Virus record (IMG/VR): IMGVR_UViG_3300012948_000388
Span: 1-47,577 of that record
Length of the DNA stretch: 47,577 nucleotides
From: a virus
Taxonomy: Duplodnaviria > Caudoviricetes
Strand: one strand, 5' to 3'
Part shown: positions 6,963-31,203 of the stretch, piece by piece
How positions within the stretch are numbered: position 1 is the first letter of the stretch
How the letters are laid out: each line of letters opens with the position of its first letter
Program-made: the position numbers and the translations under genes
Notes under the pieces: model-generated
Told to the model about the DNA's origin: nothing
What the model saw: only the letters and a program-made list of their open reading frames with translations
Database searches by the model: none

Positions 6963-7008
6963 TGGTTGCATTCGGTAGCGCTACGTGGTACACTAGAGCC
7001 ATGCACCA
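6950..7008 (+). promoter_or_regulatory. Repeated early promoter/operator, copy 3
   Basis: TTGCAT 6966-6971, N17 with GTAGCGCTAC, TACACT 6989-6994, GCACCA 7003. Confidence 0.9.
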
Positions 7009-8550: not shown

Positions 8551-8568
8551 TGGTAAAGTCAACCCGTG
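8551..8568 (+). promoter_or_regulatory. Putative extended -10 promoter for a leaderless transcript
   Basis: TGgTAAAGT 8551-8559, 6 nt, GTG 8566. Confidence 0.5.
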
Positions 8569-14369: not shown

Positions 14370-14774
14370 GTGCGGGTGCCCGCCGAGCCGTTCTGCGAGC
14401 CCGCGCAGCGGGCGCTCCTGCGCACCATCCCCTGCGCCGCCGGCGTCAGCCGCGTCTGCTTCGACGCCGACGTCGTCGTCGTCGCGCCCCGCACCGGCCA
14501 CGTCGACAGCCCGAGTCTGCTGCTGACGCTGCGCCCGCGCGGGCTCAGCCTCGACGTCCACGCGCTGCGCCGCTACCTGAACGCCTTCGCCGCGCGCACG
14601 CTCGAGCACGAGGAGCTGGCGGTCGCCATCGCCTGCGACACCGCGACCGTCTGCCGCTGCCGCGTCTGGGTCGAGCTGACCTTCGTCGTCGACGAGACGA
14701 TGCAGCGCACCGTGCGCGCGCTCGGCCGCGTCGTCACCCACGACGGGCGCGCGAACGGCGGGCGCGCGCCGTGA
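14370..14774 (+). CDS. QueF-like T-fold protein lacking the catalytic Cys
   Basis: APRTGHVD (QueF CPxTGQPD), LRRYLNAF (LKLYLxSF), HEE. Confidence 0.7.
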   Translation: MRVPAEPFCEPAQRALLRTIPCAAGVSRVCFDADVVVVAPRTGHVDSPSLLLTLRPRGLSLDVHALRRYLNAFAARTLEHEELAVAIACDTATVCRCRVWVELTFVVDETMQRTVRALGRVVTHDGRANGGRAP

Positions 14775-15493
14775 CCGAGGAGATCGCGCTCCCGCTCGCG
14801 CGCGCCGTCGCGCTCGACGACCTGACGCCGCACCCCAGGAACTACCGATCCCACCCGCCGGACCAGCTCGCGCACCTGGCCGAGTCGCTGCGCGCCAACG
14901 GCCAGTACCGCAACATCGTGACCGCGCGCGACGGCACGATCCTGGCCGGCCACGGCGTCGCGCTCGCCGCGCGCCAGCTGGGCTGGACGACGGTCAGCGC
15001 GATCGCGCTCGACCTCGACGCGCACGAGCCGCGCGCGCTCAAGATCCTCGCCGGCGACAACGAGGTCGCGCACCTGGGCGAGATCGACGACCGCGCGCTC
15101 AGCGAGATCCTCAAGCAGATCCGCGACGAGGACGCCTCGGGCCTGCTCGGCACCGGCTACGACGACGCGATGCTCGCCAACCTCGTCATGATCACGCGGC
15201 CCGCCGCCGAGATCGCCGACTTCGACGCCGCCGCCGAGTGGGTCGGCATGCCCGAGTACGGCGACGGCGCGCGCGGCTCCGAGATCGTGCTGCACCTGCG
15301 CTTCGAGACGCGCGAGGACCACGCCCGCTGCCTCGAGCTGCTCGGCCTGCCGGCCTACAACCCGGCGCGCGGCCCGCGCCAGGTCGCGACCTCGACGTGG
15401 TGGCCGCCGCGCGCGCGGGCCGACGTCGGCGCGCTCGCCTTCGTCGAGGAGGACGACGACGACGATCCGTCATCCTCCGACGCCGCCGGGTGA
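14771..15493 (+). CDS. ParB/Srx N-terminal domain protein
   Basis: LTPHPRNYRSH...LAESLRANG...ILAGHG...DN. Confidence 0.88.
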   Translation: MTEEIALPLARAVALDDLTPHPRNYRSHPPDQLAHLAESLRANGQYRNIVTARDGTILAGHGVALAARQLGWTTVSAIALDLDAHEPRALKILAGDNEVAHLGEIDDRALSEILKQIRDEDASGLLGTGYDDAMLANLVMITRPAAEIADFDAAAEWVGMPEYGDGARGSEIVLHLRFETREDHARCLELLGLPAYNPARGPRQVATSTWWPPRARADVGALAFVEEDDDDDPSSSDAAG

Positions 15494-16410
15494 GCCGGCG
15501 GCTGCCGCGCTACCCCGTCTACGTCATCTCGAAGGGGCGCGCCGAGCCGGGGCTGACGGCCCGCTTCCTCGACCGCGACCGGGTGCCGTTCCGCCTCGTC
15601 GTCGAGCCGACCGAGCGCGACGAGTACGCCGCCCGCTTCGGCGCGGCGCGGCTGCACGTCCTGCCGTTCCACGACCTGGGCCAGGGCTCGATCCCGGCCC
15701 GGAACTGGGTCTGGGAGCACGCGCGCGCGAGCGGCGCGGCGCGGCACTGGATCCTCGACGACAACATCGTCGAGATCTACCGCCGCCTGCACGGCGAGCG
15801 CGTGCGCTGCCCGGCCGGGCCGGCGCTGGCGCTCGCGGAGGACTTCGCCGACCGCTACGTCAACGTCGCGATCCTCGGACTCAACTACTACTCGTTCGCC
15901 TTCGCGGCCGAGCTGCCGCCGTTCTACCTGAACCACCACGTCTACTCGTGCCTGCTGCTCGACAACGCGCTCGCGCCGCGCTGGCGTGGCCGCTACAACG
16001 AGGACACCGACCTCTGCCTGCAAGTCCTCGCCCGCGGCCTCTGCACCGTCCTCCTGAACGCCGTCGTGATCGACAAGGAGGGCACGATGACGAACAAGGG
16101 CGGCAACACGACCACGCTCTACCAGCACGACGGCCGGCTGAAGATGGCGCGCGCGCTCGAGCGCGTCTGGCCGCGCGTCGTCACCGTCGGCCGCCGCTTC
16201 GCGCGACCGCAGCACGTCGTCGCCCACGCCTGGCGCCGCTTCGACACCCCCCTGATCCCGCGCCCCGACCTGATCCGCCCGGTCGGCCACGACGAGTACG
16301 GGATGACGCTGCGCGCGCGCCGCGACGTCGCCGACGCCCACCTGCGCCGCCTGCTCGGCGAGGCGGTCCCCCCGCGCGCGCTCACCCTGGCCGGCGCGTC
16401 CGGTGGCTAA
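15490..16410 (+). CDS. TET-associated/GREB1-like glycosyltransferase, copy 1
   Basis: PVYVISKGR, RNWVW, HWILDDNI, YSCLL, WRGRYNEDTDL, KGGNT. Confidence 0.82.
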   Translation: MSRRLPRYPVYVISKGRAEPGLTARFLDRDRVPFRLVVEPTERDEYAARFGAARLHVLPFHDLGQGSIPARNWVWEHARASGAARHWILDDNIVEIYRRLHGERVRCPAGPALALAEDFADRYVNVAILGLNYYSFAFAAELPPFYLNHHVYSCLLLDNALAPRWRGRYNEDTDLCLQVLARGLCTVLLNAVVIDKEGTMTNKGGNTTTLYQHDGRLKMARALERVWPRVVTVGRRFARPQHVVAHAWRRFDTPLIPRPDLIRPVGHDEYGMTLRARRDVADAHLRRLLGEAVPPRALTLAGASGG

Positions 16411-17323
16411 GCTCCTGCCGCGCCACCCGGTCTACGTCATCTCGAAGGGACGCTGGGAGCACCCGCTGACGGCGCGCATCCTCGCGCGCGACGGCGTGCC
16501 CTTCCGCGTCGTCGTCGAGCCGCCCGAGCGCGACCGGTACGCCGCCGCCGTCGGCGCCGAGCGCCTGGCGGTCCTCCCCTTCCACGACCTGGGGCAGGGC
16601 TCGATCCCGGCGCGCAACTGGGTCTGGTCGGACGCGCTCGCGATCGGCGCGCGCCGCCACTGGATCCTCGACGACAACATCCGCGACGTCTACCGCTACT
16701 ACCGGGGCGAGCGGGTGCGCGCGCCCTGCGGCGCCGCGCTGGCGCTGATGGAGGCCTTCGTCGAGCGCTACGCCAACGTCGCGATCGCGGGGCCGAACTA
16801 CCGCTTCTTCCACGTCGGTCCCAAGCCGCCCTTCAACCTGAACCACCACGTCTACTCCTGCCTCCTGATCGACAACGCGCTCCCCTACCGCTGGCGCGGG
16901 CGCTACAACGAGGACACGGACCTGTGCCTGCAGGTGCTCGCGGGCGGGCTCTGCACGATCCTGTTCAACGCCTTCCTGATCGAGAAGGCGACGACGATGT
17001 CGATGAAGGGCGGCAACACGACGACGCTCTACCGGGGCGACGGCCGCCTCAAGATGGCGCGCAGCCTCGAGCGGATGTGGCCCGGCGTCGTGACCGTCGA
17101 CCGGCGCTGGAACCGCCCCCAGCACGTCGTCGCCCACACCTGGAAGCGCTTCGACACGCCGCTGATCCCGGCCGCCCCGCGCGCGCGCGCCGGCGACGTC
17201 GGCGCGAGCGACGAGCACGGGATGACGCTGCGCCAGCTCCGACCGTTCGACAGCGCGCGGCTGCGGCGCGTCCTCGACGGCGCGACCGAACGCCGGAACG
17301 ACGACGACGACGGAAACGCATGA
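16403..17323 (+). CDS. TET-associated/GREB1-like glycosyltransferase, copy 2
   Basis: Same motifs; collinear paralogue of 15490-16410. Confidence 0.82.
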   Translation: MAKLLPRHPVYVISKGRWEHPLTARILARDGVPFRVVVEPPERDRYAAAVGAERLAVLPFHDLGQGSIPARNWVWSDALAIGARRHWILDDNIRDVYRYYRGERVRAPCGAALALMEAFVERYANVAIAGPNYRFFHVGPKPPFNLNHHVYSCLLIDNALPYRWRGRYNEDTDLCLQVLAGGLCTILFNAFLIEKATTMSMKGGNTTTLYRGDGRLKMARSLERMWPGVVTVDRRWNRPQHVVAHTWKRFDTPLIPAAPRARAGDVGASDEHGMTLRQLRPFDSARLRRVLDGATERRNDDDDGNA

Positions 17324-17776: not shown

Positions 17777-20101
17777 GTGCCGCTCTGGCTCGACACCGCC
17801 GCGACGCTGCCCGACGACCTGATCGACGCCGCGCGCCACCGCCTGGCGCTGCGCCACGCCCGCGAGCGCGCCGGCGCGCGCGGGCCGAGCGTCGGCCGCA
17901 GCTGGCACACCGGCGACCCGCGCGACCCGGACCGCCGCCGCCGACCGGGCCGGCCCGAGCAGAAGCTGCCGCCGCCCGTCACGCCGGCCGGCGTCGAGTG
18001 GCTGGTCTGGCTGATCCTGGCCGGGCGCGGCTTCGGCAAGACGCGCGCCGGGGCCGAGGCGACGATCGACCTCGTCCAGTCGGGCGAGTGGCGCCGGCCG
18101 GCGCTGGTCGGTCAGACCGCCGCCGACGTGCGCGACGTCATGGTGCTCGGCCCGTCGGGGATCCTGGCCTGCAGCCCGCCGGCCTTCACGCCGACCTACA
18201 TCCCCGGCCAGCGGCGGCTCGTCTGGCCCAACGGCGCCGAGGCGCTGCTCTACTCGGCCGAGCGTCCGGACCGGCTGCGCGGGCCGGGGCACGACGGCGC
18301 CTGGGTCGACGAGCTGGCGGCCTGGCGCTACCTCGACTCGTACGAGCAGGTCCAGTTCGTCTTGCGCGAGGGGCGCAACCCGCGCCTGATCGCGACGACG
18401 ACGCCGCGCCCGATCCGGCTGATCCGCGAGCTGGTGACCGAGCCGACGACCTACGTCACGCGCGGCACGACCTACGACAACCTCGAGAACCTGCCGCCCA
18501 GCTTCGCGCGCCGCGTCGTCGCCCGCTACGAGGGCACGCGCCTCGGCCGGCAGGAGCTGTACGCCGAGATCCTCGACGACCTCGAGGGCGCCTACTGGAC
18601 GCTCGCCCTGATCGACGCCGCGCGCGTGCGCGACGTCCCGCGCGCGATCGACGGCCGGCCGCTCCTGGCCCGCGTCGTCGTCGCGGTCGACCCGGCCGGT
18701 CGAAGCGGCGACGAGAACGACCAGACCGGCCTCGCGGTCGCGGGACGCGGCCTCGACGGCCACCTCTACGTGCTCGCGGCCGAGGGCGTGCGCCTCAGTC
18801 CGCGCGGCTGGGCGTCGCGCGCGCTCGACCTCTACGACGAGTGGGCGGCCGACAAGATCCTGGCCGAGCGCAACAACGGCGGCGACATGGTCGAGGCGAC
18901 GATCCGGTCGGTGCGCCTGACCGCCCCGGTCGAGACGATCCACGCCAGCCGGGGCAAGGTCGTGCGCGCCGAGCCGGTCGCGGCGCTCTACGAGCAGGGG
19001 CGCGTCAGCCACGTCGGCCGCCTCGACGCCCTCGAGCAGCAGCAGTGCTTCCCCGCCGAGACGGTCGTCGACGCGCCCGACCTCGTCGCCGCGTTACGCC
19101 GGCTCTACACGGGCGAGTTGATCGAGGTCGATACGACGCGCGGAACACTCGTCGGCACGCCCAATCATCCGGTGCTGACCGAGAACGGCTGGGATGCACT
19201 GGAGACTATCCGGCCGGGGTCTCGTCTATACTACGCCGATGCCCTCCCCGGTCGGGACGCGCCCGCACTTCGTCACCGACGACCAATTGGCGACGTTCAC
19301 GCGGCTCTACCGATCGGGCGCGACGCGCGAGGCGATCGCGGCCGAGACGGGATTGAGCCTGCCGTCCGTCAAGTACCTGGCCTACCGTGGTCGCGCGGGA
19401 TTCCGTCCGACCTACGGCGACCGCATCGCGCTCAAGCCGGTGCTCTTGACGCCGATGGAGCTGGCCTACGTGGCCGGGATCGTCGACGGCGAGGGCTCGG
19501 TCGGCTTCTGGCGGAACCGACGACGCAACAAGGTCAAGCCGATCGTTCGCGTCGCCAACACCTCGACGGAGCTACTCGATTGGCTGCGCCCGCGCCTGGG
19601 CGAGCGCGACGTCCTCGTGACGCGGCAGACGCGGCTGGCGAGCAATCGGTTGATGTGGACGCTCGCCGTTCAGGGGCTGGGCTACCTCCCGCTCTACGAG
19701 GCGCTGCTGCCGCTCCTGATCGTCAAGCGGCGGCAGATGACGCTCGTCGTCGAGTGGACGCGCCTGCGCCGAGCCGATCAGATCCCGCAGCCGACGACCC
19801 CGCGCGAGTGCGCGCTGGTCGAGGCGGTCGCGCTCCTGAACCAGCGCGCGTCACCGCTGTCCGACGACGCGCGGTCAGCGCTCTTCCGGTCTACAACCTG
19901 CGCACCGAGCGTGGCTGGTACGTCGCCGACGGCGTGATCGTCCACAACTGCTCGTTCCCCGTCGACCCCGACGCGGGCGACGACCTCGTCGACGCGGCCG
20001 TCTACGCCCTGACCGCGCTCGTCGAGCCGGCCGCGAACCCGCTCGCCGGCGTCGTCGCCGTCGGCCGCGCGCGCGGCTGGCAGCCCCGCCGCGCCGGCTA
20101 A
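17777..20101 (+). CDS. terL: Terminase large subunit with intein
   Basis: Walker A AGRGFGKT, Walker B AWVDE, TTTP, nuclease motifs VAVDP and DDLVDA. Confidence 0.96.
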   Translation: MPLWLDTAATLPDDLIDAARHRLALRHARERAGARGPSVGRSWHTGDPRDPDRRRRPGRPEQKLPPPVTPAGVEWLVWLILAGRGFGKTRAGAEATIDLVQSGEWRRPALVGQTAADVRDVMVLGPSGILACSPPAFTPTYIPGQRRLVWPNGAEALLYSAERPDRLRGPGHDGAWVDELAAWRYLDSYEQVQFVLREGRNPRLIATTTPRPIRLIRELVTEPTTYVTRGTTYDNLENLPPSFARRVVARYEGTRLGRQELYAEILDDLEGAYWTLALIDAARVRDVPRAIDGRPLLARVVVAVDPAGRSGDENDQTGLAVAGRGLDGHLYVLAAEGVRLSPRGWASRALDLYDEWAADKILAERNNGGDMVEATIRSVRLTAPVETIHASRGKVVRAEPVAALYEQGRVSHVGRLDALEQQQCFPAETVVDAPDLVAALRRLYTGELIEVDTTRGTLVGTPNHPVLTENGWDALETIRPGSRLYYADALPGRDAPALRHRRPIGDVHAALPIGRDARGDRGRDGIEPAVRQVPGLPWSRGIPSDLRRPHRAQAGALDADGAGLRGRDRRRRGLGRLLAEPTTQQGQADRSRRQHLDGATRLAAPAPGRARRPRDAADAAGEQSVDVDARRSGAGLPPALRGAAAAPDRQAAADDARRRVDAPAPSRSDPAADDPARVRAGRGGRAPEPARVTAVRRRAVSALPVYNLRTERGWYVADGVIVHNCSFPVDPDAGDDLVDAAVYALTALVEPAANPLAGVVAVGRARGWQPRRAG
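19227..19241 (+). promoter_or_regulatory. Putative internal leaderless promoter for the nested endonuclease
   Basis: TATACT 19227-19232, 6 nt, ATG 19239. Confidence 0.6.
19239..19937 (+). CDS. HTH + single-motif LAGLIDADG homing endonuclease nested in the +1 frame of the intein
   Basis: LYRSGATREAIAAETGLSLPSV (HTH), LAYVAGIVDGEGSV, VANTSTELLDWL, LLPLLIVKRRQ. Confidence 0.88.
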   Translation: MPSPVGTRPHFVTDDQLATFTRLYRSGATREAIAAETGLSLPSVKYLAYRGRAGFRPTYGDRIALKPVLLTPMELAYVAGIVDGEGSVGFWRNRRRNKVKPIVRVANTSTELLDWLRPRLGERDVLVTRQTRLASNRLMWTLAVQGLGYLPLYEALLPLLIVKRRQMTLVVEWTRLRRADQIPQPTTPRECALVEAVALLNQRASPLSDDARSALFRSTTCAPSVAGTSPTA

Positions 20102-20224
20102 ACCGTCGTGCCGGCGGGGCAACGATTCGTTGCGCACGGCGCGGCGCGAGCCGCTACCATAGGGACGCGGTGGGGCGGTGGCGCGCGCGCCACCCCCGCT
20201 GCTCGCCGGGGGGGAGCGCGGACG

Positions 20225-21919
20225 GTGGTCCTGACGGCGCGGTCGCTGGCGGGCGGCCGGCAGACGGTCGACGAAAGCTGGGCGCTGCGGCGGATGCCGT
20301 TCTCGATCGTGGCGCCGAACGCGATCGACCAGCGCTGGAAGCTGCTCGCGCTCGACGACGCGGCGCTGCGGCGGCTCGAGCCCTCGGCGCTGATGGACCT
20401 CCTGGCCGACACCGAGCCCGGCTACTCGCGCGCGCTCTACGACGCGCTGCGCCTGGGCAACCCCGGCTGGACGCTGACCGCCTACCGGATCGACGCGGAC
20501 GACCCCGAGCCGCGCGCCCAGGCGGTGCTCGACGCCTTCGTCGCCGAGCTGGAGCTGCTCTACGGCACGGCCGACGTCGTCTGGAACCGCCTGATCTTCG
20601 GCGCCTACCACCGGGGCGCGGTCTTCGCCGAGCTGGTGCTCGACGAGTCGGGGCGCGTCCCGATCGACCTCGCGACGCCCGACCCCGCGACCGTGCGCTT
20701 CAAGAAGGAGATCGACCCGGCGCGGCCGGCGCGCGGCCCGATCTGGCGCGCCGGGCAGTGGCAGGCGGGCGAGTTCGTGCTCTTCGACCGGCCGACGATC
20801 TGCTACGTCCCGGTCGACCCGTTCCCCGGCTCGCCCTACGGCCGGCCGCTCGGCGCGCCGGCGCTCTTCACCTCGCTCTTCCTGATGGGCATGCTCGCCG
20901 ACCTGCGCCGGGTCGTGCAGCAGCAGGGCTGGCCCAGGCTCGACATCATCCTGAAGTCGGAGCAGCTGGCGACGCAGATGCCGGCCGAGGTGCTGACCGG
21001 CACGCCGCAGCAGCGCGCCGACTGGGTGCAGTCCAAGCTCGACGAGGTCGCGTCGCAGTACGCGCAGCTCGAGCCGGACATGGCGTTCATCCACCTCGAC
21101 ACCGTCGAGATGGGCAGCCCCCAGGGCGTCGTCGACGCCTCGGCGCTGGGCTCGGTCGAGCCGATCGTGGCGCTGCTGCAGCGCCAGCAGGTCCAGGCGG
21201 TCAAGACGATGCCGCTCCTGCTCGGCCTGTCGGAGGGCGTCAGCGAGGCGAACGCGAACCGGCAGTGGGAGATCCACGCCGCCGGCGTCAAGGCGCTGCA
21301 GCACCTGATCGAGACGCCGCTCTCGCGGCTGCTCTCGGTCGCGCTGCAGGCCGGGGGACTGGCGGCGCGCGCCGAGCTGCGCTTCGCCGAGCTGCGCGCG
21401 GCCGAGATGATGCGCGACGAGCAGACCAGAGCCATCAAGGACGCCAACGTCGCCTTCGAGCGCGACCAGGGCTGGATCGACCAGGACGCGGCGGCGCAGG
21501 ACGCGGTCGGCCACCCGCCGGTCGGGCCGCCGAGCCCGTTCGCGCCGACCAAGCCGGGCGGGACGGGCGCCGGCGGCGGCGGATTCGGCGGCGGCGCCGG
21601 CGTCGACACCCAGACCAACCCCGAGCCCGGTTCGAGTAGGTCGCTGTCTCTCGATGAGCGGACGCGAAGCGACGTGGATCGCGCAGCGATGACGCAGCGA
21701 CTCGACACGGAGCAGCGACTGGAGCCGTTGGGGGCGGCGGCGGCGCTGCCGTCGATCACGCGCGAGCCCGTGCTCGCGGCCGGCGCGCTCGACGAGGCGC
21801 GGGGTGCCTGGGAGCGGCTGATCGCGCCGCCGCACGACGACCTGCTCGACGCGACGCTGGCCGAGCCGCCGCCGGCGCGCGCGAACGGCCACGCCGCCGC
21901 GTCCCTGCCGGCCGGCTGA
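20225..21919 (+). CDS. Portal protein (start uncertain: 20225 or 20294)
   Basis: Position after TerL, size, GAVFAELV, SPYGRP, GWIDQD motifs. Confidence 0.78.
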   Translation: MVLTARSLAGGRQTVDESWALRRMPFSIVAPNAIDQRWKLLALDDAALRRLEPSALMDLLADTEPGYSRALYDALRLGNPGWTLTAYRIDADDPEPRAQAVLDAFVAELELLYGTADVVWNRLIFGAYHRGAVFAELVLDESGRVPIDLATPDPATVRFKKEIDPARPARGPIWRAGQWQAGEFVLFDRPTICYVPVDPFPGSPYGRPLGAPALFTSLFLMGMLADLRRVVQQQGWPRLDIILKSEQLATQMPAEVLTGTPQQRADWVQSKLDEVASQYAQLEPDMAFIHLDTVEMGSPQGVVDASALGSVEPIVALLQRQQVQAVKTMPLLLGLSEGVSEANANRQWEIHAAGVKALQHLIETPLSRLLSVALQAGGLAARAELRFAELRAAEMMRDEQTRAIKDANVAFERDQGWIDQDAAAQDAVGHPPVGPPSPFAPTKPGGTGAGGGGFGGGAGVDTQTNPEPGSSRSLSLDERTRSDVDRAAMTQRLDTEQRLEPLGAAAALPSITREPVLAAGALDEARGAWERLIAPPHDDLLDATLAEPPPARANGHAAASLPAG

Positions 21920-29423: not shown

Positions 29424-30737
29424 GTGGCCGCCACGGACATCGCGCTCGTCAGCCAGGTCGACCAGATCGGCGTCGAGGCCATCGGCTCCGAGGGCGTCGC
29501 CGTCACGACCAACCGCCTCCTGCAGGCGATGTCGCTCTCGGTCAACCCCGCCTACGAGATCCAGGTCTTCGGGCCGGCCGGGCAGAAGGCCGACACGCTC
29601 TCGATCATGAACAAGGAGTGGGCGACCGGCGACGTCGCCGGCGCGCCGACCTACGACGAGCTGGTCGTGCCGTTCTCGTCGATCTTCGGCAACGGCGTGA
29701 CCGACGTCCCGCCGGGCGGGACCGCCAGCCGCCGCTGGAGCTTCGCCCCCCGGCCGGTGCAGAAGGACGTCTGCCGCACGTTCACTCACCAGAAGGGCTC
29801 GCCCGGCGCGCAGAACGCGACCAAGTCGAGCGGGCTGATCTTCTCGGCCTTCGGCTTCTCGCTCTCGAAGTCGGGCGGGACCAGCCTCTCGGGCACCGTC
29901 ATCGCCGGCCGCCAGTCGCAGGACCAGTGGCTCGACGGCGGCGAGGTGCAGCGGATCACGATCACGGGCGCGCCGACCGGCGGGACGTTCACGCTCACGC
30001 TCGGCGCGAACACGACCAGCGCGATCGCCTACAACGCCGCCGCCGGCGTCGTCGAGGCGGCGCTGAACGCGCTCGCCTCGGTCGTCGCGCTCGGCGGCGT
30101 CAGCTGCGCCGGCGGGCCGCTGCCGGCGACCGCGATCGACGTCGCCTTCCCGTCGGCGACGAGCGACCCGGCGGCGATGACCGCGACCAGCTCCTTGACC
30201 GGCGGCTCGACGCCGGCGGTCACGATCAGCGTGCCGGCGCCCTACGCGGCGGTGACGAGCTTCCCGCTCGTGCCGATCGCGCCCGGGCAGGTCGACGTCT
30301 TCATGGACGACACCTACGCCGCGCTCGGGACGAGCCAGCTCCTGCGCGACTTCGTCGTCGAGTTCAGCTTCGGCGACCGGCGCAACCCGATCTGGCCGCT
30401 CAACACGGCGCTCAGCTCGTTCGACGGCACGGTCGAGATCAAGCCCAACCCGACGCTCAGCCTGAAGCTGGGCAACGACCCGAAGGGGCGCAGCCTCTAC
30501 ACGACGATCCGCACCGGCGGGCGCAAGTACGTGCGCGTCACGGCGACGGGGCCGACGATCGAGGCCGCGATCAGCTACAAGCTGACCTTCGACGCCTGCG
30601 TGATCGTCTCCGACAGCCCGTCGTCCGACGACGAGGACGGGCTGTCGACGCTGACGATCCCGTTCCGCTGCGTCTACGATCAGACGGCCAACCTGTGGAT
30701 GAAGGCCGAGCTGATCAATAAAACGCTTACTTTGTGA
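29424..30737 (+). CDS. Major tail tube protein with inserted accessory domain
   Basis: QIGVE N-terminus; internal EVQRITITGAPTGGTFTLT..TSAIAYNA module. Confidence 0.8.
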   Translation: MAATDIALVSQVDQIGVEAIGSEGVAVTTNRLLQAMSLSVNPAYEIQVFGPAGQKADTLSIMNKEWATGDVAGAPTYDELVVPFSSIFGNGVTDVPPGGTASRRWSFAPRPVQKDVCRTFTHQKGSPGAQNATKSSGLIFSAFGFSLSKSGGTSLSGTVIAGRQSQDQWLDGGEVQRITITGAPTGGTFTLTLGANTTSAIAYNAAAGVVEAALNALASVVALGGVSCAGGPLPATAIDVAFPSATSDPAAMTATSSLTGGSTPAVTISVPAPYAAVTSFPLVPIAPGQVDVFMDDTYAALGTSQLLRDFVVEFSFGDRRNPIWPLNTALSSFDGTVEIKPNPTLSLKLGNDPKGRSLYTTIRTGGRKYVRVTATGPTIEAAISYKLTFDACVIVSDSPSSDDEDGLSTLTIPFRCVYDQTANLWMKAELINKTLTL

Positions 30738-31203
30738 CGCGTCGTGGCTTGGCGACGTACGCGTGCTCGCGCTCGGGCAGGCCACCCTGTCGCAGCCGGC
30801 CACACTCGCGGCACTGTCGGTATCCGCGCGGGGTGATGTGCGTGTTCTCGGGCGTGAACGGATGGCCGTGGGGGCAGGCGTCGGCGCGCGAGCGCGCGAT
30901 CGAGGGTGCCACGCCGCGCCGGATGTTCGTGCGCGCCGAGACGGCCTCCAGGTGCGCGGGATTCACGCACAGCGTGTTGCGGCAGAGGTGATCGAGGTGC
31001 AGGCCAGCCGGAATCGGGCCGACGAGCAGTTCGTAGGCGACGCGGTGCGCGCCGATCATCCCGGTCCCGGCGCGCCCGCGCGCGATCTGCCCGTAGCCGA
31101 CGCCGTTGGTCGAGGCCAACCAGGGCCAGCACTCGTCGGATCCGCGCCGCGCGACCTTCGGCCAGAACCGATCCGCGAGCGGGCGAACGGCGCGCGGCTG
31201 CAC
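30727..31203 (-). CDS. HNH homing endonuclease, antisense within the tail operon
   Basis: RFWPKV..CWPW..GYG..AHRVAY..DHLCRN..CVNPAHLE; TATAAT (complement of 31210-31215) 6 nt before GTG 31203. Confidence 0.9.
   Translation of the reverse strand: MQPRAVRPLADRFWPKVARRGSDECWPWLASTNGVGYGQIARGRAGTGMIGAHRVAYELLVGPIPAGLHLDHLCRNTLCVNPAHLEAVSARTNIRRGVAPSIARSRADACPHGHPFTPENTHITPRGYRQCRECGRLRQGGLPEREHAYVAKPRRVTK

Follow-up and report, generated by a model that had tools for sequence, protein, structure and literature searches.

A phage terminase intein that shelters a predicted endonuclease gene in its +1 frame, a layout that recurs in phages and archaea

Introduction

The gene for the large terminase subunit (TerL) of a soil phage is interrupted, in frame, by an intein whose own reading frame encodes no nuclease, which raises the question of where a homing function of this element could lie. 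The phage is represented by a 47,577-base record (IMG/VR IMGVR_UViG_3300012948_000388), which was analysed over its whole length and is called the window here. A preliminary description of the window had proposed that the middle of the intein, read in the +1 frame, is an independently expressed endonuclease gene, and that this is an architecture not described before. Here, we describe a computational analysis of the intein, the nested reading frame and their relatives. We present evidence that contiguous inteins holding an intact +1 endonuclease gene are a real and recurrent layout. In the window, the middle of the intein is such a gene; it is probably translated separately, from its own ATG, and encodes a predicted homing endonuclease.

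The general layout has already been published, and the claim of an undescribed architecture does not hold. Phillips, DeSimone and Gogarten (bioRxiv 10.64898/2026.09.14.751524) described an intein in cyanobacterial dnaX that contains a LAGLIDADG gene out of frame, the '+2 ORF' (open reading frame), accompanied by Shine-Dalgarno motifs; they found purifying selection in the endonuclease frame and credited Gorbalenya 1998. The accessible text of Gosselin, Arsenault and Gogarten (bioRxiv 10.1101/2025.01.02.630785) describes contiguous actinobacteriophage inteins, frequently located in terminase, whose endonuclease occupies a frame of its own, and distinguishes an antisense LAGLIDADG type, an antisense VSR-like type and a same-strand, frame-3 endonuclease VII type. 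In addition, Arsenault et al. 2025 (PMC11855218) report an insertion in ShiLan with an out-of-frame HNH enzyme for which leaderless translation was proposed.

Results

The intein and its own reading frame

The interrupted TerL ORF (17777..20101, + strand; 774 amino acids, counted from the first GTG as the assumed start) contains the Pfam domains Terminase_6N (E 2.7e-23) and Terminase_6C (E 2.6e-9). Within it, the intein (19046..19948, +) spans 903 nucleotides and 301 residues, is in frame with TerL, has no stop and is of the contiguous class 1 type. Its splicing blocks are intact, as the preliminary description had noted: C1 in the initial CFPAET, T38-P-N-H41, H300-N301 in the terminal VHN and a +1 Cys are all present. 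The N-terminal splicing region, with C1 and T38-P-N-H41 (19046..19237, +), is of a compact type common to inteins that carry an antisense VSR-like gene, and the C-terminal blocks, PVYNL...VHN, occupy 19886..19948 (+). The insertion point lies in the nuclease domain of TerL, before a Cys and just ahead of the DxxDA motif. The C-extein (19949..20101, +) begins with this Cys and contains the nuclease motif as DDLVDA, which corresponds to the DxxDA motif of intein-less relatives. Eighteen terminase relatives were fetched, and the site was empty in all 11 that were readable, the +1 residue being Cys in nine and Thr in two.

The sole Pfam match to the intein is weak (Intein_splicing, E 0.083) and NCBIfam scores also lie below cut-off; purpose-built Hint profiles match the N- and C-terminal ends at E 4e-22 and 2e-13, respectively. 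An AlphaFold model, built from an input of 55 related inteins, has a predicted local distance difference test score (pLDDT) of 91-98 at residues 1-60 and 261-301, while residues from about 96 to 258 are mostly below 50. The top fold matches of this model are Hint domains only, and they are weak (best E 8.5e-3; none below 0.001). The preliminary description of the central part, about 200 residues rich in Arg, Gly, Ala and Pro and devoid of a nuclease, agrees with our measurement of 63% for these four residues across 196 amino acids. Neither Pfam nor the AlphaFold model reveals a nuclease domain in the intein's own frame, and the canonical two-motif, in-frame LAGLIDADG enzyme is absent. The layout is not that of a split intein, the host ORF being unbroken and the intein a single open frame. 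The element combines a contiguous intein, an unstructured middle and a nuclease ORF in another frame, and these features place it among the non-canonical inteins.

The nested reading frame

The nested ORF extends from an ATG at 19239 to a TGA ending at 19937 (19239..19937, +; offset +1) and encodes 232 residues with a helix-turn-helix (HTH) domain and a single-motif LAGLIDADG domain. The three-helix HTH comprises residues 14-52 (19278..19394, +), with model helices at 14-25, 30-37 and 41-52. The LAGLIDADG core comprises residues 72-200 (19452..19838, +) and has E85 at the metal-binding position and a conserved K163; the motif helix with its acidic residue, the alpha-beta-beta-alpha-beta-beta-alpha core and the conserved Lys that mark single-motif enzymes are all found. 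A profile search of both frames had been suggested in the preliminary description, and Pfam proved weak for the nested ORF (LAGLIDADG_3, E 0.021; HTH, E 0.007-0.05) as it was for the intein. The model of the nested protein (pLDDT 82) matches the folds of I-MsoI, I-CvuI and I-CreI at E about 1e-7, which backs the earlier assignment of the LAGLIDADG domain, and a profile of the endonuclease family recovers the same three enzymes by sequence. Features from a sequence atlas pointed to unnamed and LAGLIDADG clusters at 0.86-0.91 and served as a lead only.

The GC content of the nested ORF by codon position is 0.67/0.53/0.90, so that the third-position (GC3) bias noted in the preliminary description is now measured. 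It is the +1 frame that has the high-GC third position between about 19226 and about 19886, and the host frame on either side of this segment. The ORF does run on through the intein's C-terminal block, as had been pointed out, but this run-on is a passive tail: in its last 17 or so codons the codon signal belongs to the host frame, the sequence is unconserved and the model is of low confidence. An alternative in-frame ATG lies upstream at 19194; the starts of the relatives nevertheless align to 19239.

Ten loci with the same layout

Relatives of the endonuclease were fetched by alignment searches, taking the best 80 per scan, which gave 236 loci with the window included (L256); a repeat of the viral scan returned the identical 80 loci. 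Alignments were required, as locus searches with a single endonuclease or intein sequence yielded no confirmed relative. Hint blocks adjoin the endonuclease gene in ten of the 236 loci, a minimum for the family. Each of these ten has an open host frame, with the endonuclease encoded on the sense strand at the +1 offset. The host protein is the terminase in the window, a family 4 glycosyltransferase in L200, L257, L264, L267, L346 and L352 (the last two from archaeal metagenome-assembled genomes), and a DUF2201 metallopeptidase/vWA protein in L265, L266 and L270. The ten loci thus represent seven insertion sites in three host-protein types, in phages and two archaeal genomes, at a locus GC of 0.41-0.74 (41-63% in the nine besides the window). 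In 10/10 an ATG directly follows the N-terminal splicing blocks, at intein codon 65-110; among control inteins, a +1 ATG occurs within a comparable 15-codon stretch in 26 of 73. The preliminary description had named in-frame fusion in homologues as grounds for abandoning its reading, and no in-frame fusion of Hint and endonuclease was seen among the 236 loci.

Five loci were excluded from the family: L262, L367 and L373, in which the frame equivalent to +1 is open without Hint blocks, and L271 and L272, in which the other frame is briefly open. For 57 loci (L412-L468) openness of the host frame was checked only past a length and no-stop filter, which yielded no case, and without a Hint-profile scan. 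The remaining enzyme relatives are free-standing genes of about 135 amino acids or lie inside interrupted capsid genes, and Rfam detected a group I intron in one of five relatives tested (L201), below threshold.

Several relatives differ in setting. Many in L176-L232, L259 and L353 lie within major capsid genes of phages, on either strand, and probably belong to group I introns that mostly escape Rfam. In L475 (1507-1962; Mycobacterium phage DotProduct gp64) an open DNA methyltransferase frame contains, at +1, a related ORF for a single-motif LAGLIDADG protein; no splicing domain was seen there, and the ORF is unannotated in this cultured phage and unnamed in the accessible portions of the methylase literature examined. 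The glycosyltransferase gene of L257 has a second, upstream intein (3-1230) with an ordinary in-frame LAGLIDADG enzyme. An HTH plus LAGLIDADG relative in L328 (1392-1900) is inserted in a capsid-like gene close to its start, in the region of that gene's frame, and Hint profiles found no intein in this locus.

Selection in the endonuclease frame

A comparison of selection by frame, as called for in the preliminary description, favored the +1 frame. In 45 of 45 pairs the +1 proteins share more identical amino acids than the host-frame linkers do (mean identity 0.27 vs 0.145; the pairs are not independent), and nucleotide identity is lowest at third positions. For the closest pair, L265/L266, the ratio of nonsynonymous to synonymous change (pN/pS) is 0.51 in +1 and 1.45 in the host frame.

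The host frame also bears the mark of maintenance. In the +1 register a host-frame stop consists of a wobble T that precedes an AA, AG or GA codon of the endonuclease. No member has such a stop, although permutation of synonymous codons leads one to expect 2.4-12.4, and the probability of finding none is <=0.007 in nine of the ten nested loci; the same frame is open in 0 of 121 non-nested endonuclease cores. Unavoidable stops number 0 in the frame used, and the other sense frame has 7-31 stops, 0-2 of them unavoidable. The conservation of the +1 frame together with the avoidance of host-frame stops indicates that both frames are maintained, and the +1 register would be favored because each host-frame stop in it starts with a wobble T of the endonuclease, so that a silent change suffices to remove it. 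The preliminary description had attributed the open host frame to high GC3. This view was discarded as a requirement, since members with an endonuclease GC3 of 0.38-0.42 have open host frames too, despite 8-12 expected stops; high GC only eases the case of the window. The proposal that a contiguous intein shelters an intact +1 endonuclease gene selected in its own frame is supported across the ten loci. As judged from these alignments, selection on the nested gene is supported at the level of the family, the window's allele being without close relatives.

Splicing-domain relatives and origin

The closest splicing domains to those of the window, at up to 52% identity, belong to the antisense VSR-like intein family. 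After removal of 5 loci without the anchor motif and 19 without a parsed C-terminus from 97 intein loci, this family comprises 73 contiguous loci (68 distinct), and a long antisense ORF is present in 73/73. These ORFs encode an HTH and a VSR-like (MTES_1575/DUF559-like) domain with weak Pfam scores, MTES_1575 being matched in 27 of 56 scanned, always below cut-off. Compact inteins of the GTPNHPVL type are common among L019-L175; their hosts include MuF and many others, Salmonella jerseyviruses among them, and their antisense ORF often overlaps both splicing blocks.

The splicing domains of the window, L257 and L264 group with the antisense-VSR-like inteins (support 97), apart from those of the other seven nested loci. 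The enzyme tree is weak; it places the ten nested enzymes within a 16-row subtree (support 86), and a single group of the nested enzymes with P0049 and P0096 is not rejected, though not shown, by the approximately unbiased test (p-AU 0.775). Judging from these unrooted trees, either a single enzyme lineage resides in splicing domains of two kinds or a cassette of one kind displaced the other. Inversion of an antisense VSR-like cassette was considered as an origin and rejected, the similarity being limited to weak HTH scores (best E 0.004). The antisense frames of the window's intein are full of stops. The endonuclease had been called overprinted in the preliminary description, a term that is not supported; the endonuclease, which has free-standing and intron-borne relatives, is best seen as the older, inserted gene and the intein-frame linker as the by-product.

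Signals at the start of the nested gene

A -10-like hexamer, TATACT (19227..19232, +), lies 6 nucleotides before the ATG, within Leu-Tyr-Tyr codons of the intein. It depends on the rare Leu codon CTA, which seven long ORFs of the window use for 2 of their 340 Leu residues. The earlier comparison with positions 8566 (+) and 31203 (-) is sound in its spacing, both sites showing TANNNT, 6 nucleotides and a GTG. The latter site opens a free-standing HNH endonuclease gene (30727-31203, -; Pfam HNH_3, E 1e-13) that lies between the major tail gene and its neighbor on the opposite strand; a perfect TATAAT stands 6 nucleotides ahead of its GTG, and this gene needs its own promoter. Among the other nested loci, L264 has TATACT 7 nucleotides ahead of its ATG and L346 has TANNNT at 6 nucleotides, in AT-rich DNA. 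These signals somewhat favor a leaderless promoter as the best reading for the window's nested gene, although it is not universal in the family.

Discussion

The results suggest a route by which this element might spread. The intein would fold around a disordered linker of about 195 amino acids, splice itself out and restore the terminase. The endonuclease would be made separately, and the likeliest source in this phage would be a leaderless transcript that starts at the ATG behind TATACT; the enzyme, by analogy with I-CreI and I-MsoI, might homodimerize. It could then cut intein-less terminase alleles in mixed infections, and repair would copy the whole intein. A single-motif enzyme would require free dimerization, which a separate gene would supply. 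Such an arrangement could have originated by invasion of a mini-intein, at the position where inteins usually have their endonuclease, by a gene that had been free-standing or carried in an intron.

Homodimers usually want a pseudo-palindromic target. Several observations weigh against a functional, separately expressed endonuclease. The empty site of the window lacks two-fold symmetry, its best score of 5/9 pairs being reached by 98% of background positions; across the family, in what is a low-power test, target symmetry exceeds background in 1 of 10 members (L267, 8/9 pairs). No close relative, with or without the intein, was found that would attest recent homing. Of the six pairs compared, all except L265/L266 approach saturation, with a +1 pN/pS of 0.73-0.95, and stop avoidance in the window taken alone is not significant (2.4 expected; P 0.06-0.13). 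Upstream of 19239 there is no Shine-Dalgarno sequence, no -35 and no extended -10, and the absence of the latter two speaks against a promoter. Shuffled sequence yields 4.9 +/- 2.1 TANNNT-6/7-RTG sites and the window contains six, which is no enrichment by count; five of the six nevertheless open ORFs of GC3 >= 0.87, the antisense HNH gene among them. TANNNT at 6-7 nucleotides occurs in only 3 of the 10 nested loci, G-rich runs resembling Shine-Dalgarno sequences occur in 3 (L200, L264 and L265, so that L264 has both), and 5 have neither, which means that the start signal is not uniform across the family.

Of the alternatives, the one that best survives is that the endonuclease is made separately but has no promoter of its own, ribosomes initiating internally on the terminase (late operon) mRNA, with TATACT a by-product of Leu-Tyr-Tyr. 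The missing -35, the unenriched motif count, the G-rich runs at three other loci and the Shine-Dalgarno motifs reported for dnaX would all suit this explanation. Before 19239 itself, however, no such run is present, the hexamer is created by a rare CTA, and similar spacing recurs at L264 and at four other genes of the window; we consider internal initiation unlikely here. A second alternative, that the nested gene is now a silent relic and only the splicing of the intein matters, is consistent with the asymmetric target and the weak Pfam scores. It is improbable in view of the full-length ORF, the intact E85 and K163, the phage-like GC3 of 0.90 and the confident fold. A programmed +1 ribosomal frameshift near 19239, which would yield a fusion of terminase N-terminus, intein N-terminus and endonuclease, would account for the +1 offset in 10/10 and for an ORF that starts right behind the N-terminal blocks. 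Yet an ATG stands at the aligned start in 10/10, inspection by eye of 19181-19260 shows no homopolymer or slippery run, and the close relatives P0049 and P0096 are called as stand-alone proteins; of these two improbable alternatives the frameshift is, if anything, the less credible.

The last alternatives, an ordinary in-frame intein with two compensating indels (an assembly error or a recent mutation) or an RNA intron that holds the endonuclease, draw on the double change of frame in the codon signal and on enzyme relatives in probable group I introns (L201, sub-threshold) and an annotated spliced methylase, but can be set aside almost entirely, since a second assembly, probably of the same sample and therefore not an independent one, is base-identical over 18500-20500 (Logan contig of 13.5 kb, depth 11.1; 0 other letters, 0 gaps), nine other loci have the same offset, no in-frame Hint fusion was found, there is no non-coding room for a ribozyme, and Rfam gives no credible match at 18800-20300, on which ground the RNA intron is rejected. 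Rfam likewise gave no match at gathering score on seven other nested loci.

A separately translated +1 endonuclease, the preferred reading, puts the nested enzyme in the dnaX/actinophage class of non-canonical inteins, from whose dnaX lineage it is set apart by motif count. The DnaX intein is likewise contiguous, with a disordered in-frame middle and an overlapping-frame LAGLIDADG gene that has its own start, and invasion of a mini-intein has been proposed for it as well. The DnaX enzyme, however, has two motifs, an I-WcaI-like model, a Shine-Dalgarno-led start and one host gene, whereas that of the window combines a single motif with an HTH, resembles I-CreI/I-MsoI, lacks a Shine-Dalgarno sequence and belongs to a family found in three host-protein types; the text of that paper leaves open whether its '+2 ORF' is in the same register as +1 here. 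The antisense LAGLIDADG type of Gosselin et al. shares an I-CreI-like core (residues 40-185 in theirs) and, in the accessible text, the same origin model; a sense-strand, frame-2 LAGLIDADG type does not appear in their main text, although the supplements may list sense-strand cases. Antisense VSR-like inteins (Gordonia phages Angelicage and Vivi2, Salmonella jerseyvirus MuF) resemble the window's intein in their splicing domains, but their nuclease is unrelated and on the opposite strand. I-CreI, I-MsoI and I-CvuI share fold and motif, but are intron-encoded, lack the N-terminal HTH and are about 20-24% identical. The ShiLan insertion also has an out-of-frame endonuclease nested in an open host frame, with leaderless initiation proposed, but there the enzyme is HNH and no splicing domain is present.

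In the literature searched, outside of which lie most subscription papers and the preprint supplements, neither a sense +1 single-motif HTH-LAGLIDADG lineage nor a nested intein endonuclease with a leaderless promoter was found. What appears to be new is this sense-strand lineage, at seven insertion sites, together with the wobble-base reason for the +1 register and a likely leaderless promoter written into intein codons. Tentatively, and at somewhat less than even chances, we propose that a single HTH-LAGLIDADG lineage has specialized in +1 life within inteins, swapping splicing domains and retargeting unrelated phage and archaeal host genes, with the register set by the genetic code, +1 alone always permitting the silent loss of every host-frame stop, and some members building a leaderless promoter from intein codons, which would time the nuclease apart from the late terminase.

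The surprise is limited by the prior publication of the general layout. If the proposal is true, it would explain how enzymes that work as homodimers come to be paired with inteins, and the layout would be a living intermediate on the way to in-frame fusion. The observed layout supports the model in which inteins gain endonucleases through invasion by free-standing genes, and it offers a testable rule for which register survives. With this family, a distinct and widespread lineage joins a class of elements that escapes annotation, since gene callers output the host frame only. The intein would tolerate a linker of about 195 unconstrained residues inside an essential packaging enzyme, and the ten predicted enzymes at seven sites are candidate single-motif meganucleases with an added HTH.

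Other features of the phage record

The record has a tailed-phage gene order: terminase, portal, head protease, major head, major tail, tape measure and endolysin, with the portal gene as the downstream neighbor of TerL. The locus had no plasmid match, and no RNA holder was listed. Upstream of the terminase subunits, at 14771-17323, are a ParB-like gene and two tandem glucosyltransferase-like genes (phrog_842). The left arm contains six near-identical sigma-70-type promoters on the + strand, at 352, 5259, 6989, 10316, 11791 and 12604, each with TTGCAT or TTGCGT, 17 nucleotides and TACAAT or TACACT, and with a common spacer of about 30 nucleotides; the copy at 6989 opens a leaderless ORF.

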